A model generated the notes under the pieces. That model made no database searches. It worked only from the letters and a program-made list of their open reading frames with translations, and was not told the DNA's origin. A stretch of DNA of 64,000 bases from Escherichia phage ALITA: the sequence record PP359570; one strand, written 5' to 3'. The translations under genes were made by a program, and so were the position numbers. Positions 4,890 to 18,065 of the stretch are shown here, piece by piece (the first letter of the stretch is position 1; every line of letters starts with the position of its first letter).

Positions 4890-5104
4890 TATTTTGAAAA
4901 TTTTTATTTTTATAAAAAGGGGTGTGGGTTTCATGTACGGAAATCCACCCTCTGAATAATATATCCAGAGTAAGTAGTATTCTGTACTCTGTTAATAAAG
5001 TATTTAATTTGTTTGTTGGATTATGGTGGCTGATCTTTAAAAGGCATACTATCTCTTAACTACTACTTATAACAAAACAGTAAAATCCTTTTTATAAAAG
5101 TACA

Positions 5105-5305
5105 AAATTATTTAAAGTTTTTACAGATTTTCGGGTACAAATTTTGAAAATGAAAAGTTCAAGTTTGGTCAAAATTATTTAAAGTTTTTGTACGTATTTC
5201 TGTCCAGATTTTGAAAATGAAAACTTCAATTTTTTAAAAATTCCCCAGTTTATTTAAAGTTTTTTTGCCTTTTTCCGTAGAAAAATCAAAAATGAAAAGT
5301 TCAAT
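5105..5305. repeat. three imperfect direct repeats (~67-75 bp iterons)
   Basis: Blocks TTATTTAAAGTTTTT (5108, 5175, 5249) and GAAAATGAAAAGTTCAA (5144, 5210, 5287) recur in the same order. Confidence 0.6.
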
Positions 5306-5327
5306 TTCGTGTTTTTATAGGTGTGTT

Positions 5328-5439
5328 AATGAGAATCATTTTCGTTTGTAAATGAGAATCATTATCATTTAACTATGTAAGTGATAATCATTCTCAGTAA
5401 GAGAATGAGAATCATTAGCAAATGAGAATTTTTCTCATT
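5328..5439. promoter_or_regulatory. array of five Fur-box-like operators (AATGAGAATCATT)
   Basis: 13-mers at 5328, 5351, 5380, 5404 and the perfect palindrome AATGAGAA-TTT-TTCTCATT at 5421-5439; the 19-mer ending at 5364 matches GATAATGATAATCATTATC at 16/19. Confidence 0.5.
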
Positions 5440-5674
5440 TACAGAATAACGCGCAGGGGCGGTGTTTGTCTCGCGCTCCCGTGTCCCCTCGCCATACAAT
5501 AAGAATAGCATAACCAATAACAAAAGCAAGCGATTATTTTTATCTTTACATTTCTTTACAAATTTATTTTAGACGAGCTACCGGCGATCAACCTTCCAAC
5601 CAGTGCCCCCTGGTATGTTAGCCCCGCCTTTACGCCGTGGGGTGGCGTTTCCTCTTCTGTATGTAAAACAGTAT

Positions 5675-5693
5675 AAGCCCGATCCCTGGGCTT
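5675..5693 (-). terminator. intrinsic terminator AAGCCC-N7-GGGCTT
   Basis: Hairpin 7 nt after stop of 5701..5967 on minus strand, followed by atactgtttt. Confidence 0.5.
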
Positions 5694-5700
5694 GTCAAGA

Positions 5701-5967
5701 TTATTTTTTGTTTTCTTGCCAGGATAGGACACCTAACCAAAAATACATGTCGCCCCGCGCCCCTGGTGGGATCTTGCTTTCCCCGCCGCCACTGCAAGCC
5801 CATAAATAACCATCAGCGAACGGATCAAAGTGATCTATCTCTTCCACCTTATGATCGCCCAGGTTGAGAACGGTTTCAACCTTTAAGCCCGTTGCGCTTG
5901 CTACCTGGTGCACCGTGCCGCCTTGCCAGCCCAGTGAGTGCATGAGATGTAAAGAAGTATTTGTCAT
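5701..5967 (-). CDS. hypothetical protein (only minus-strand gene of the island)
   Basis: 88-aa ORF with its own promoter/hairpin/purine leader upstream and a terminator downstream. Confidence 0.6.
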   Translation of the reverse strand: MTNTSLHLMHSLGWQGGTVHQVASATGLKVETVLNLGDHKVEEIDHFDPFADGYLWACSGGGESKIPPGARGDMYFWLGVLSWQENKK

Positions 5968-15558: not shown

Positions 15559-15942
15559 ATGAGCAATATCATCAACCTGGCAGCGACTGTAAACGGTAAA
15601 GACTTTAACGGCGCTGTAGACCGTGATCCTATGTGGTGCTTATCAGTGTTTAAAGGCGATCTGGTTGAAGTTAGAACAACCGAAGGTTATAGCGACGATT
15701 ATAAATGCGAGATTCATTTACACAACTGGTACACGGGTAAAACTTATGCGCTGAATCACGCGTTTATCGGGAAAATTGAATATCGCGAGATGATCGACGA
15801 AGAAACGGGGCAAGATTTTAGCGAGCATGTTTATATTCGTTCAGAAACATTAGCCGAACGTTTGATCGAGAAAATGAAAGCAAAAAATAAAATTAATTTA
15901 TCTCATTGGATTGATATAACAAACGATCCGGCTTATAAGTAA
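15559..15942 (+). CDS. hypothetical protein
   Basis: 127-aa ORF with GAGGA RBS. Confidence 0.7.
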   Translation: MSNIINLAATVNGKDFNGAVDRDPMWCLSVFKGDLVEVRTTEGYSDDYKCEIHLHNWYTGKTYALNHAFIGKIEYREMIDEETGQDFSEHVYIRSETLAERLIEKMKAKNKINLSHWIDITNDPAYK

Positions 15943-15958
15943 ATAACATTTCACACCA

Positions 15959-15985
15959 GGGCGCACAAAGCGCCCTTTCTTTTTA
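15959..15985 (+). terminator. intrinsic terminator GGGCGC-ACAAA-GCGCCC + T-run (end of island)
   Basis: Perfect stem plus tttcttttt. Confidence 0.7.
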
Positions 15986-16189
15986 CCTAAATAAAGATGA
16001 TAGCTTTTACCTATCAAAAACGTTCACCGAAAAAAGTGAATAGATCGCGGTATCGAACTAATCAAGCAACAGATGAACAACCATACCATGAAGGTCATAA
16101 GGCGCTTACAACGTGTTTTAGACCGCTTATTTTTAATTTCTTCATGTAACTATCTGGCAAAAACAGCCTTTTTCTTGTCTTTCCTCTTA

Positions 16190-16260
16190 AATGATAATCA
16201 TTCTTATTTATAGCTGATTATTTATGCAATTTATTGCATAATGCAATAATGATAATCATT
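16190..16260. promoter_or_regulatory. two exact Fur-core 13-mers AATGATAATCATT flanking a triple ATGCAAT/ATTGCAT palindrome
   Basis: 13-mers at 16190-16202 and 16248-16260; ATGCAAT-TT-ATTGCAT-A-ATGCAAT at 16224-16247. Confidence 0.5.
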
Positions 16261-16640
16261 CCTAACTTAAGACCATCTAACCTATAAAATAATAAGTTAT
16301 CTAACTAAATTAAAACTAATTATCTCACTTTTATTTATAACTTACTGTTACTATCTCATTGATAACCTTATATTAAACAACAATAACTAATATAAATCAT
16401 TACTAAGCTAAATATAATCTATCTAACCCTTAAAACTACAATTATAATCTATCTAATTGTTGCACAAAGTAACTATTAAATTGTTAGTAACATTACTAAA
16501 TAATTCACATCCTATCTATTTATGATCTAATCTTTACCTTTCTATCTATTACCTAAATAACCATTTCATACAGTAATTATTCCATATGGTAATCATTTCA
16601 TACAATAATTATAACAAGAAATATAATTCGCAAGCGTATC

Positions 16641-16816
16641 ATTAGCAGCCTATGCCGGACACATAGGCGGCTAATAATAACGCAACTACACACCCCACAT
16701 AATAACCATCAACGATGGTTATTATTTGTGTTTATGTAGCTTGCAACAATTGCAAGCGCAACAATATACATGGTATATTGTATTCCCTTACATTGTTGCG
16801 GTGCGTTATTATTAGC
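16641..16816. repeat. nested perfect palindromes / cruciform-capable element
   Basis: Outer arms GCTAATAATAACGCA (16670) / TGCGTTATTATTAGC (16802) enclose hairpins at 16699-16725 (12 bp), 16739-16757 (8 bp) and 16762-16780 (8 bp); a further hairpin lies at 16642-16673. Confidence 0.6.
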
Positions 16817-17119
16817 TAATGTTTAGAACATTGGCTATAATATAAGCTGCATATAATAAACTATGCAATAATAAACATGGTGAATAATGACACCGATGAT
16901 CATAATGCGCCACCCTCCAGGGGGCGCTATGTAAACACAAAGAAATCTTTCTTGTCAAGAAAATATTGCCACTATTGCGCAAAATTATTTTTATCTGAAT
17001 AGATGATTTTTCATACTATTGCCCCTATAACATACCTCATTTGTTGAGCCTACTTTCTTAAAAGCGCAATAAATCAGAATTATCTTGATTTTTAGGGCGT
17101 TTTATAGTACAGAAAGTAT

Positions 17120-17138
17120 GCAAATGATAATCATTATC
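17120..17138. promoter_or_regulatory. Fur-box-like site (17/19 to GATAATGATAATCATTATC)
   Basis: gcaAATGATAATCATTATC read directly from the sequence. Confidence 0.5.
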
Positions 17139-17305
17139 AGCTATCTTCCACGGGTAGCACTATTTCACGCCAGATCATTTCATTTGGCAAGGTGTATATA
17201 GATGTTTAGACTTGCCAAGCCATTGATTTACTTAGAATTTATCTGTTTTGTTGTGAGTAATACCTTTCTTACTCAGAAAATAATCAAAAGTCTTATAAGT
17301 CATTG

Positions 17306-17336
17306 AATGATAATACAAATGATAATTATTCTCATT
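17306..17336. promoter_or_regulatory. tandem Fur-hexamer-like repeats
   Basis: AATGATAATacaAATGATAATTATTCTCATT. Confidence 0.4.
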
Positions 17337-17695
17337 GATATTTGAGGGGGACGGTCGGCAGAAATCGGGGGGCGCTGAAAATCGCGTTAAGCACCTCTCG
17401 CAAGCGAGCAGTATTTTGCGGCAAGTTATTGATATTATTGACTTTACGCTTATGAAAAGGGGGTGTGTCGAAATAAATCGGGTATACCGGAAAATTTTTG
17501 TGGCATAGATATTTATTTGTCTATATTATGTACAAAGGGGTGTATTAAAAATAATAGGTATATATAGAATAATTGATAGGGAAATCCTATACTAATCCCT
17601 CCATTAATGATGTTTCTATGTTGCTGTTATTGTAATAGATGAAAAGACGCTGTATGATGTGTGGCATGAAACGTAAACTTATAAAGGAGTCTGAT

Positions 17696-18065
17696 ATGTG
17701 TGTCCCTCTTAGCAGTCCACTGCTGTTAGAATTTTACAAAGCATGGATGGAAGATCATTCCTCAATGCATCGTGAGAATGTTGGTTTGTGTATTTGCCTT
17801 ATGGATTATCTGGCAACCACTATGTCAAAGAAAAAAAAAACCTACGCAAGAAGATATAGAACATTTCAAGATGGTTCGTAGTAAAACGCTGGAAGAGATG
17901 AAATTGCAATTCACGTGTGCTGGGCTATCCTCCTTCCTGCCCTTTAATGATGACCTTCTGTGTTATGAAGATGAAGGTAAGAAACATTCTTGCCATACTA
18001 ACCCAGAGAGATTGCAGTGGGTGAAAGATCGTATCGAAGATGCAAATAATGTTTGCATTGGATAG
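17696..18065 (+). pseudogene. frameshifted member of paralog family A (split at A10 run 17831-17840)
   Basis: ORFs 17639..17881 and 17772..18065 together align with the full length of paralogs 19847..20215 and 20839..21423; removing one A restores the frame; AAGGAG RBS before ATG 17696. Confidence 0.6.

Follow-up and report, generated by a model that had tools for sequence, protein, structure and literature searches.

How can a phage genome that is otherwise tightly packed with genes afford about 1.65 kb without any sizeable open reading frame (ORF)? A sequence-only reading of the window, by which is meant the whole stretch of 64,000 nucleotides analysed here, had drawn attention to this locus and had listed an origin, centromere or pac region, a cluster of non-coding RNAs and a regulatory hub as possible answers.

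The gene-free stretch and its borders

As had been claimed, 15943-17638 is free of ORFs of at least 60 aa in the six-frame list, and these 1,696 nt form the longest such stretch of the window, followed by stretches of 713, 464 and 301 nt. The biggest ORFs within it encode 57 aa (17335-17508, + strand) and 56 aa (16812-16982, - strand). Alignment with annotated relatives places the start of the first downstream gene at ATG 17696, behind the RBS AAGGAG (17684-17689), so that the non-coding stretch, hereafter the gap, really covers 15943-17695. The GC content is 0.30 in 16001-17000 compared with about 0.37 elsewhere, and the local GC skew is -0.24. The description of the remaining genome as tightly packed holds, except near 4890-5600, where a second non-coding region contains tandem repeats of roughly 70 bp. 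The G-rich patches of the gap are also real, at 17344 and 17455.

By its sequence, the window is that of a phi92-like myovirus (Justusliebigvirus), and its gap shows 93-95% identity to that of 47 Justusliebigvirus records. The gap is preceded by a homologue of Phi92_gp248, the last phi92 gene, and followed by a phAPEC8_0019-like gene and then by homologues of Phi92_gp002 and gp003. Syntenic gaps of about 1.5-1.9 kb occur in Phapecoctavirus, in a third Klebsiella-phage lineage and in Vequintavirinae Av-05. Two elements mark the left border:

15958-15985, + strand: intrinsic terminator from the terminator scan, stem AGGGCGC/GCGCCCT and then a T-run
15986-16140, unstranded: conserved block 3' of the terminator with the words GATAGCTTTTACCTATC, TGAATAGATCGCGGTATCGA and TTTAGACCGCTTA

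The terminator closes the rightmost transcription unit (the Phi92_gp248-like gene, 15559-15942) and is also annotated in Paula and phAPEC8; in the Justusliebigvirus/Phapecoctavirus alignment its stem is kept and its loop is variable. The adjoining block is the most widely conserved portion of the gap, common to Justusliebigvirus and Phapecoctavirus and also matching Vequintavirinae Av-05 and Klebsiella phage KP13-16, and a 22-nt piece of it (16117-16138) reappears in the E. coli islands described below. Conserved hairpins in 15986-16100 were considered and rejected, for in spite of a stable fold (z = -4.1) Phapecoctavirus keeps no hairpin other than that of the terminator.

The 9-11 tiny ORFs that some depositors called in the gap, and the neighbouring regions rich in small genes of unknown function, might suggest decayed coding sequence, a graveyard of lost small genes without any function of its own. 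Such a view is hardly credible. Two subfamilies keep a gap of similar size at the corresponding position, the Justusliebigvirus/Phapecoctavirus alignment shows discrete invariant blocks beside divergent ones, the hairpins show compensatory changes, and curated annotations leave the gap empty.

The ends of the chromosome, as placed by homology

The favoured explanation, with an estimated probability of about 0.85, is that the gap represents the terminus, or concatemer junction, of a phage whose packaged DNA is of unit length and carries short direct terminal repeats (DTRs) at its ends. The ends of the present genome are placed by homology, with cut positions taken from the records of other groups:

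17043-17049, unstranded: left edge GTTG^AGC, putative terminase cut site, cut between 17046 and 17047
17047-17389, unstranded: homologue of the 343-bp repeat of phi92, aligned end to end with few mismatches
17331-17409, unstranded: right-edge site comprising TGATATTTG, G-runs and CGCTGAAAATCGCGTTA^AGCACCTCTCGCAA, putative cut between 17389 and 17390
17390-17695, + strand: left-end leader with the conserved block GGTATATATAGAATAATTGATAGGGAA (17557-17583), the RBS and, directly behind it, ATG 17696

The phi92 record (NC_023693.1) annotates DTR-L at 1-343 and DTR-R at 148270-148612, both of which align to 17047-17389, and this homologue sits between the last and the first genes of the linear map. 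DTR-L of phi92 begins with AGCCTAC, corresponding to 17047, and the record of PHB05 ends exactly at 17046. The record of Schickermooser (Phapecoctavirus) opens and closes with an exact 329-bp repeat whose borders read ...GTTG^AGC and ...GTTA^AGC; this repeat begins after ...AATGTTG and ends at the same position as DTR-R of phi92, which closes with ...CGCGTTA. In phage BME3 (genus Justusliebigvirus), a 342-bp DTR was reported by PhageTerm (PMC12210895). The repeat edges GTTG^AGC and GTTA^AGC thus occupy homologous positions in two genera. Their common short motif, GTTR^AGC, is invariant across genera, TGTTGAGC at the left edge is invariant in the Justusliebigvirus/Phapecoctavirus alignment, and the pair of edge motifs recurs at a spacing of 330-412 bp in four other lineages. 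We infer that the right-edge site serves terminase recognition and cleavage. The likeness to phi92 and other Stephanstirmvirinae covers the full 343 nt, the flanking genes and the edges; the difference is that the present assembly is permuted, and the repeat appears once, internally, with its two copies collapsed into one, so that both chromosome ends abut in mid-gap. The pac/terminus branch of the sequence-only reading, together with the terminus mapping that it called for, is therefore supported, and its pac reading holds in part; its centromere found no support. Judged from sequence homology, the identity as terminus appears secure; the roles of the sub-elements are proposed below as what may follow from it.

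The left part of the virion chromosome would run from the DTR (17047-17389) through the leader to the first genes, and the right part from the last gene (ending at 15942) through the terminator and 1.1 kb of non-coding DNA (15977-17046) to the second DTR copy. Replicated concatemers might be cut at two GTTR^AGC sites by terminase or an associated nuclease, and fill-in synthesis might duplicate the 343 bp between the cuts, as in the T7-type model. At about 230-400 bp to the left of the junction, the hairpin nest with its ATTAGC words would act, together with the G-poor AT tract, as cis-acting packaging or replication-start DNA, and the DTR would carry the first rightward early promoter. An origin of replication or a transcribed region would be equally compatible with the nest and the tract.

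In T7 and T3, a short DTR with adjoining repeat arrays is reportedly duplicated during packaging, and an inverted repeat left of the junction is said to give a hairpin intermediate, as proposed there. The present junction is similar in its short DTR with defined cuts, in the palindromes and strand-specific arrays of short words immediately to its left, and in a promoter in or beside the repeat. Nevertheless, this phage is a myovirus without detectable sequence relationship to T7, its repeat measures 343 bp instead of 160 bp, its palindromes form a nested multi-hairpin unit, and phage RNA polymerase promoters are absent; the mechanism is here proposed by analogy.

The accessible records and papers on Stephanstirmvirinae annotate the repeat alone, and the Fur-like boxes, cut-site motif and hairpin nest are undescribed in them. 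A conspicuous 'empty' region of well over a hundred sequenced phages from two subfamilies, some of them studied as therapeutic candidates, would thereby be explained. The GTTR^AGC pair, about 330-345 bp apart in most lineages examined, would tell annotators where the true chromosome ends lie, so that genomes could be consistently oriented and spurious small ORFs removed. In a group without molecular genetics, this probable terminase cut motif is a testable cis-element.

The hairpin nest and the AT-rich tract

The palindrome nest noticed earlier to the left of the junction proved real, with a 15-nt arm pair and inner hairpins:

16641-16816, - strand (weakly favoured): conserved hairpin nest of 176 nt, from 22 aligned variants and covariation
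16641 and 16811, unstranded: ATTAGC words at the nest
16648-16668, - strand: hairpin 1, beside the outer stem
16670-16684 / 16802-16816, - strand: outer stem of 15 bp, arms 100% complementary
16702-16722, - strand: hairpin 2, enclosed by the outer stem
16739-16757, - strand: hairpin 3, enclosed by the outer stem
16757-16800, - strand: genus-specific arm, enclosed by the outer stem

The nest is present in 132 phage records; the IMG/VR locus L011 and several metagenome loci were left out as chance matches to the search pattern. Nested palindromes of unrelated sequence lie at the same position in KP13-16 and Av-05. Among the 22 distinct variants, 13 of the 45 base pairs show double compensatory changes, and the covariation score is 0.227, a value reached in 0 of 500 shuffles, compared with 0.088 after shuffling and at most 0.059 after sliding; the conservation and covariation check suggested for the region thus came out in favour of supported base pairs. 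The RNAalifold energy of these variants is -57.7 kcal/mol on the - strand, where 99.3% of cells pair, compared with -50.5 on the other. The breaks on the + strand are mostly A.C, that is, G.U on the - strand. The - strand is weakly favoured as the folded one, a preference that rests on about six independent A.C events against one. With its unusually clean covariation, this folded element is open to direct test as a cis-element.

Searches for known RNAs came back empty. The nest matched no Rfam family; no family reached its gathering score in the window, 15800-17800 gave chance-level matches alone at E up to 10, and ARAGORN found neither tRNA nor tmRNA in the window. The proposed cluster of non-coding RNAs thus gives way to a single conserved folded element, which seems to be undescribed. 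Might leftward transcription of the minus strand turn this element into a structured non-coding RNA, so that part of the gap would be an RNA gene? The strong covariation, the persistence in so many records, the better folding of the minus strand and the G.U pairs found on that strand only would suit an RNA. Yet DNA hairpins also tolerate G.T pairs, the element has no Rfam family, neither a minus-strand sigma-70-like promoter (score of at least 8.5) within the gap nor a terminator following the structure was found, and the outer-stem word repeats as extra direct copies outside the structure, which suggests protein-bound DNA. An RNA gene is accordingly improbable. A literature search on transcriptomes of these phages found nothing relevant.

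Besides the nest, two repetitive elements lie further left:

16265-16560, + strand: G-poor, AT-rich tract of 296 nt (A 0.41, T 0.38, C 0.18, G 0.037) with ATCTA/TATCTAA words
16558-16612, + strand: three tandem 16-bp units TAAYCATTYCATAYRGTAATTAT, including the duplicated CATTTCATACA(G/A)TAATTAT

The short repeated words pointed out earlier are non-random, as 16270-16560 holds nine copies of ATCTA where dinucleotide shuffles predict 2.24 (nine being reached in 0 of 500), and the other strand holds none. The duplicated word is likewise real, at 16562 and 16594; two of the earlier coordinates were off by one base. The tract is a candidate DNA-unwinding tract, Rho-loading (rut-like) tract or junction-flanking repeat array. 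In Phapecoctavirus it is, by eye, also A/C-rich and G-poor, and its sequence is not conserved. The tandem units, annotated as repeat_region in inny and arall, differ in copy number among relatives, with one unit fewer in phi92.

The same elements could be assembled into a replication origin, in which the ATTAGC words and inverted repeats would be iterons for a phage initiator and the tract the unwinding element. T7 has origin-associated promoters near its genome ends. The position beside the ends could be of that kind or incidental, and an origin would be compatible with the terminus reading. The composition of the tract (79% A+T, 3.7% G) suits unwinding, lineage-specific words occur in both orientations (ATTAGC here, other words in Av-05 and KP13-16), and the E. 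coli islands are weakly colinear with the gap within their own iteron-rich stretch, beside a replication-initiator-like gene. Other observations fit an origin poorly. The DnaA box TTATCCACA is absent from the gap at up to one mismatch, and ATTAGC occurs only twice in the present genome (plus one inverted copy), compared with four times in phAPEC8 and at least nine times in KP13-26. In addition, hairpins 1 and 2 keep pairing despite complete sequence change, as would be expected of a folded strand more than of a duplex site recognised by its sequence, and the second non-coding region is an equally good origin candidate. An origin within the gap is less likely than not, though it deserves to be kept in view.

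Fur-like boxes and promoters

Within and to the left of the repeat lie sites resembling operators of the host iron regulator Fur, as well as a predicted promoter:

16192-16206, unstranded: Fur-like box 1 (within 16189-16264), 2 mismatches to the 15-mer TGATAATNATTATCA
16222-16241, unstranded: 20-bp palindrome TTATGCAATTTATTGCATAA, flanked by boxes 1 and 2
16250-16264, unstranded: Fur-like box 2 (within 16189-16264), 3 mismatches to the 15-mer
17125-17139, unstranded: Fur-like box 3, perfect TGATAATCATTATCA, inside the DTR
17184-17219, + strand: best sigma-70-like promoter of the gap, TTGGCA-17-TAGACT, score 11.9, predicted
17320-17334 (element 17307-17334), unstranded: Fur-like box 4, TGATAATTATTCTCA, 1 mismatch to the 15-mer, inside the DTR

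The Fur-like 13-mers seen earlier are real and stronger than first stated, the 15-mer being matched without mismatch at 17125. At up to two mismatches the gap holds three matches against 0.08 expected (0 of 1000 shuffles), and the whole window holds seven Fur-like matches against 1.0. The region of box 3 agrees with 16 of 19 positions of the 19-mer consensus GATAATGATAATCATTATC (17120-17138), and box 4 has an extra upstream GATAAT hexamer (17309-17314). Boxes occur in the syntenic gap of every lineage examined (Phapecoctavirus, the KP13-26 lineage, KP13-16 and Vequintavirinae Av-05). For instance, Phapecoctavirus keeps box 1 as TGATAACCATTATCA and box 3 as TAATAATCATTCTCA; box 4 is identical in four of four Phapecoctavirus loci, at 179 bp from box 3 compared with 195 bp here. 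Av-05 has TGATAACCATTCTCA and TGATAATGACTCTCA at the place corresponding to boxes 1 and 2. A second cluster of five or six boxes, with a GAGAAT variant, lies at 5324-5437. Consensus match, excess over chance and retention in relatives are all as expected of Fur operators.

From these sequences, it may be predicted that the four boxes recruit host Fur, and they would number six per virion genome, two of them lying in the repeat. Such recruitment could make transcription at the chromosome ends iron-responsive, soak up Fur, or both. No clear overlap of the boxes with a conserved -35/-10 pair was found in the gap; box 4 overlaps a weak TTGAAT-18-TATTCT promoter candidate whose conservation does not extend to every lineage. 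Good plating on iron-replete media makes simple repression of essential early promoters unlikely in these phages.

Could the boxes only look like Fur boxes, and be either the operators of a regulator that the phage itself encodes or AT-rich palindromes with another reason for being kept? They share flanks beyond the Fur core (a 29-nt family), as copies of one module would, the second cluster uses the GAGAAT variant, and a conserved overlap with a promoter was not found. Nevertheless, one box agrees with the 7-1-7 Fur motif at 15 of 15 positions besides its 16 of 19 with the longer consensus, all copies converge on the Fur core AATGAKAATCATT, and the boxes remain Fur-like across lineages whose surroundings have diverged beyond alignment. 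The aerobactin promoter is one example of a genuine Fur site with GAGAAT variants. Look-alikes are thus the less probable interpretation, albeit one with some weight, and the boxes presumably bind Fur. Their likeness to the E. coli Fur operator (19 bp, GATAATGATAATCATTATC; 7-1-7 reading, TGATAATnATTATCA) reaches a perfect 15-mer and extends to clustering and to overlapping GATAAT hexamers at box 4.

Fur-controlled genes of temperate phages include stx1. The Fur-controlled sit operon is likewise carried by lambdoid phages (PMC6969025). In contrast, the present boxes belong to a virulent phage, where they lie at the chromosome ends and inside the terminal repeat and not before an iron-related cargo gene, and their Fur binding and regulatory effect are predicted. 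A literature search on Fur boxes in lytic phages found nothing relevant. Resembling host Fur operators and located at the chromosome ends of a virulent phage, these boxes too are testable cis-elements, through which infection would be tied to iron status. Capture of a host promoter was considered and set aside, as the DTR matched no Fur-regulated host promoter when compared by BLAST with E. coli genomes. An exact 22-nt match to box 3, in an IS-rich mosaic, is uninformative.

Boxes 3 and 4 enclose the best promoter (17184-17212), which overlaps the inverted repeat TTGGCAAG/CTTGCCAA. Its counterpart in phi92 has the -35 sequence TTGACA and a score of 13.8; in Phapecoctavirus the -35 is kept and the -10 is not. 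A 38-nt look-alike of the region occurs in the E. coli islands. Transcription from this promoter would run rightward, out of the left-end repeat and in the direction of the first genes. The gap as a whole shows no enrichment of promoter-like sites, with 11 in the promoter scan against 13.9 expected, and a heuristic position-weight matrix found five in 1.8 kb, all on the + strand, against 2.95 per kb window-wide. A cluster of early promoters as a statistical feature thereby lacks support. What stands of the regulatory hub suggested earlier are the conserved Fur-like boxes and one good sigma-70-like promoter in the DTR, and a hub in this sense is plausible.

Islands sharing the right-edge site

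The right-edge site is copied in integrative islands of 9-12 kb in several hundred of 5,426 complete E. coli genomes, with a 46-nt match at 95.7% in the island of APEC O1 and a 48-nt match at 87.5% in that of ATCC 8739. The 46-nt site is the only DNA common to island and window, and among 50,697 phage records the site of the islands was found only in Stephanstirmvirinae. The island with the 46-nt match has a tRNA-Thr repeat at its borders. Genes for a tyrosine integrase and for capsid, tape-measure-like and Dit-like proteins are found in the islands, as is a replication-initiator-like gene with its iteron-rich origin; neither terminase nor portal is annotated in them.

Tn3 and Tn501 have 38-bp terminal repeats. 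A likeness of the right-edge site (GGGGG...GCAGAAATCGG...GAAAATCGCGTTAAG) to such a Tn3-family inverted repeat was considered and rejected, since BLAST of 17325-17405 against 72,556 plasmids gave no relevant match and the site in the ATCC 8739 island is wrongly oriented relative to the nearby recombinase gene.

P4 shares its cos with P2. The present case is similar in that a short site is common to a phage and to otherwise unrelated integrative islands, and it shares with lambda cosB and P2-P4 cos a defined cut site with adjoining repeated words. It differs in its 343-bp repeats in place of cohesive overhangs, its terminase recognition is putative, and the islands are candidate satellites only. 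A literature search on satellites of these phages found nothing relevant. It is conceivable, if rather speculative, that the right-edge element of about 60-80 nt is a phi92-like terminase site pirated by the islands and that, in addition, the phage Fur boxes form a Fur sink or iron sensor. In that case, the islands would be satellites of a virulent myovirus packaging with terminal repeats, and replicating phage DNA, with six boxes per virion plus the five or six at 5324-5437, would act as the sink or sensor. The right-edge copy in the islands is a concrete lead to satellites of virulent coliphages.

Extent and gene neighbourhood of the gap

The sequence-only reading of a long ORF-free segment in this part of the window was borne out, as no ORF of 60 aa or more occurs in any of the six frames of 15943-17638. 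When ORF-free stretches were ranked across the 64-kb window at this cut-off, the segment was the longest (1,696 nt), the next longest being 713 nt. Since the annotated ATG of the first downstream gene in relatives aligns to window 17696, preceded by AAGGAG, the non-coding DNA spans 15943-17695. The gap is AT-rich (GC 0.30 in 16001-17000), and every repeat listed earlier was found again, at most one base away and non-random where tested.

The gap is 93-95% identical to the same, likewise empty, region of 47 phi92-like myoviruses (Stephanstirmvirinae, Justusliebigvirus), and curated records of relatives annotate only a terminator and a small repeat there. Its upstream neighbour is a homologue of Phi92_gp248, the last phi92 gene, while the downstream genes include homologues of Phi92_gp002 onward. 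A ten-A run (17831-17840), where inny and Paula have six A, interrupts the first gene of the left end (ATG 17696) in this genome and breaks it into two frames (17639-17881 and 17772-18065). The longer run may reflect a sequencing error in the homopolymer or a genuine frameshift, or it may be slippery.

Chromosome ends of relatives map to the gap

Mapping of genome termini had been proposed as a check on the gap, and termini of relatives do fall within it. The RefSeq record of phi92 annotates left and right direct terminal repeats (DTRs) of 343 bp, both of which match window 17047-17389 over their full length, and the last base of the PHB05 record corresponds exactly to window 17046. In a second genus, Phapecoctavirus, the Schickermooser record carries an exact 329-bp repeat at either end, with edges ...AATGTTG^AGCAAG and ...CGCGTTA^AGCACT at positions homologous to the phi92-type edges. 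Left and right edges thus have GTTR^AGC in common, a motif without variation in an alignment of the gap between Justusliebigvirus and Phapecoctavirus. The motif pair also occurs in four other lineages with a spacing of 330-412 bp, and a 342-bp repeat was identified in BME3 by PhageTerm (PMC12210895).

This homology to chromosome ends argues that the window is a permuted assembly in which the terminal repeat has collapsed. In the gap, the repeat would be preceded by the non-coding DNA of the right end and followed by the leader of the left end, and the whole is most probably the terminus region of a phage that carries direct terminal repeats. In the T7-type model, concatemers are cut and fill-in synthesis duplicates the repeat between the cuts; here the cuts would fall at the two GTTR^AGC sites, and the 343 bp lying between them would be duplicated. 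Such a terminus region is a known kind of feature and the phi92 repeat is already annotated; the conserved elements around it appear to be undescribed so far. These elements merit experiments, and the mimicry of the right edge by bacterial islands even more.

Conserved layout of the gap

A gap of 1.5-1.9 kb lies at the syntenic place in Phapecoctavirus, one Klebsiella-phage lineage and the Vequintavirinae phage Av-05. The two-genus alignment was used to tell conserved blocks from divergent filler.

Elements of the gap (window positions)
Terminator and about 150 nt beyond: conserved block, kept also in Av-05 and KP13-16
16192: Fur-like box 1, with a 20-bp palindrome, conserved block
296-nt tract: 79% A+T and 3.7% G on the plus strand
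16641-16816: hairpin nest, conserved block
17046/17047 and 17389/17390: the two repeat edges, conserved blocks
17125 and 17320: Fur-like boxes 3 and 4, within the repeat, conserved blocks
Leader block: conserved block

The Phapecoctavirus counterpart of the 296-nt tract looks G-poor too, its sequence not being conserved. In one relative, KP13-16, a 160-aa gene sits in the middle of an otherwise gene-free terminus gap (locus L039, 3511-3993). In the lineage of Klebsiella phage KP13-26 (locus L015, 2600-2870 and 3001-3137), the word TATTATTAGC is amplified to at least nine copies beyond the nest, and the left-edge motif TGTTGAGC occurs three times, spaced 67-69 bp. These copies suggest that the junction region expands via duplication of its own motifs.

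The hairpin nest

Twenty-two distinct versions of the nest, from phage records, IMG/VR and metagenomes, were aligned. The nest comprises five elements, namely a 15-bp outer stem with two hairpins inside it, a further hairpin alongside and a genus-specific arm. Pairing is preserved through many double changes; hairpin 2, for instance, has at least six unrelated stem sequences, each with a 3-nt loop. With RNAalifold, compensatory changes were seen at 13 pairs, whichever strand was folded. Of the cells, 99.3% are paired on the minus strand and 98.1% on the plus strand, and the minus-strand covariation score is 0.227 versus 0.088 after shuffling (reached in 0 of 500) and at most 0.059 with slid partners. 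Plus-strand breaks are mostly A.C and correspond to G.U in the minus strand (10 cells, about six independent events versus one), and the fold energy is -57.7 kcal/mol for the minus and -50.5 for the plus strand; a single-stranded form of the minus strand, as RNA or as DNA, is therefore weakly favoured.

Several points stand against the nest being an RNA gene: it has no Rfam match, neither promoter nor terminator was found on the minus strand of the gap, and the outer-stem word TTATTAGC recurs as extra direct copies, four in phAPEC8 and at least nine in KP13-26. In more distant relatives this position is occupied by perfect, nested palindromes whose sequences are unrelated, likewise composed of lineage-specific words in both orientations. 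The nest is read as putative cis-acting DNA at the junction, for packaging recognition or replication, and with the AT tract it may aid initiation of either process.

Fur-like boxes

The Fur-operator-like word TGATAATNATTATCA matches perfectly at 17125, with one mismatch at 17320, two at 16192 and three at 16250. At up to two mismatches, three matches were observed in the gap against 0.08 expected (0 of 1,000 shuffles) and seven in the whole window against 1.0, six of the seven falling in two non-coding regions, the gap and a cluster at 5324-5437. The Fur 19-mer consensus gave six matches at up to three mismatches (0.04 expected). In the syntenic gap of Phapecoctavirus, Fur-like boxes align with boxes 1, 3 and 4, the last two being 179 bp apart there and 195 bp in the window; boxes also occur in the gaps of the KP13-26 lineage, KP13-16 and Av-05. 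That they recur across lineages despite diverged flanks probably reflects binding of a factor to the boxes. The obvious candidate for this role is host Fur, which may bind them.

No conserved promoter overlapping the boxes could be demonstrated in the gap. The sigma-70-like site that scores best, TTGGCA-17-TAGACT (17184-17212), is located between boxes 3 and 4, and the terminal repeat may carry the first rightward promoter. Searches of the literature yielded no description of Fur boxes at the termini of lytic phages, the sole match on Fur and phages being the sit operon carried by temperate phages (PMC6969025).

The right-edge site in E. coli islands

BLAST comparison of the repeat with 5,426 complete E. 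coli genomes revealed two related families of small integrative islands (9-12 kb).

Representative islands
APEC O1, NC_008563.1, about 295.1-307.4 kb (locus L037, 621-12865): 12.2 kb; site at L037 1729-1774
ATCC 8739, NZ_CP043852.1, about 1818.3-1827.2 kb (locus L035): 9 kb, at thiM; site at L035 16647-16694

The APEC O1 island is bordered by a 19-bp repeat matching the 3' end of tRNA-Thr and encodes a tyrosine integrase, major head, tape-measure-like and Dit-like proteins, and a replication-initiator-like protein whose gene adjoins a 2.8-kb unannotated iteron-rich stretch. With the 64-kb window it has a single segment in common, the 46-nt ATCGGGGGGCGCTGAAAATCGCGTTA^AGCACCTCTCGCAA straddling the right cut (95.7% identity). 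In the ATCC 8739 island the copy has diverged further (48 nt at 87.5%, then GCGTTGAGC) and is accompanied by genes for a tyrosine integrase, a GmrSD nuclease, a serine recombinase and HTH proteins. Apart from this site neither family shares DNA with the window, and an annotated terminase or portal is absent from both islands. Any match to the repeat was found in 514 of the 5,426 genomes, a few being unrelated short matches; the best match was at least 99% identical in 343 records (mostly a 26-nt exact core in sampled rows) and 80-90% identical in 125 (mostly the 48-nt variant). Several hundred of the genomes carry such a copy. A search of 50,697 phage records with the island site gave matches in Stephanstirmvirinae only.

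Its retention by two diverged island families argues that the right-edge site is a functional, transferable cis-element, and the islands are on this account candidates for satellites of phi92-like phages. The site fits a putative terminase recognition and cleavage site; alternatively, it may be a helper-responsive promoter.

Other observations

A second non-coding region covers 713 nt (4890-5602) in which no ORF reaches 60 aa. At 5100-5310 within it, a unit of about 70 bp (…ATTTAAAGTTTTT…TTTTGAAAATGAAAAGTTCAA…) is present in three to four tandem copies, and this array is an alternative replication-origin candidate. The cluster at 5324-5437 holds five or six Fur-like boxes within 115 bp, including TGAGAATCATTATCA and TGATAATCATTCTCA, in a region aligning at about 86% with Phapecoctavirus. 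Directly after it comes a G-rich segment. A GC-rich, hairpin-rich segment at 5420-5710 is conserved far outside the subfamily, at 75-85% identity in Vequintavirinae-like, Cronobacter, Pectobacterium phiTE, Proteus Mydo, Pantoea and Klebsiella phages. It has no Rfam match; a near-consensus promoter (TTGACA-17-TATACT, 5698-5670, minus strand) is directed into it, and it is a candidate widespread phage non-coding RNA.

Several records labelled as Campylobacter, Pseudomonas or Acinetobacter phages (MG065639, MG065645, MG065656, MG065689 and others, OR584014, OP562383) are near kin of these E. coli phages across the gap region. Across the entire gap, Campylobacter-labelled records show about 94% identity with the window, and Pseudomonas- and Acinetobacter-labelled ones have a Phapecoctavirus-type nest and gap; these host labels look doubtful.
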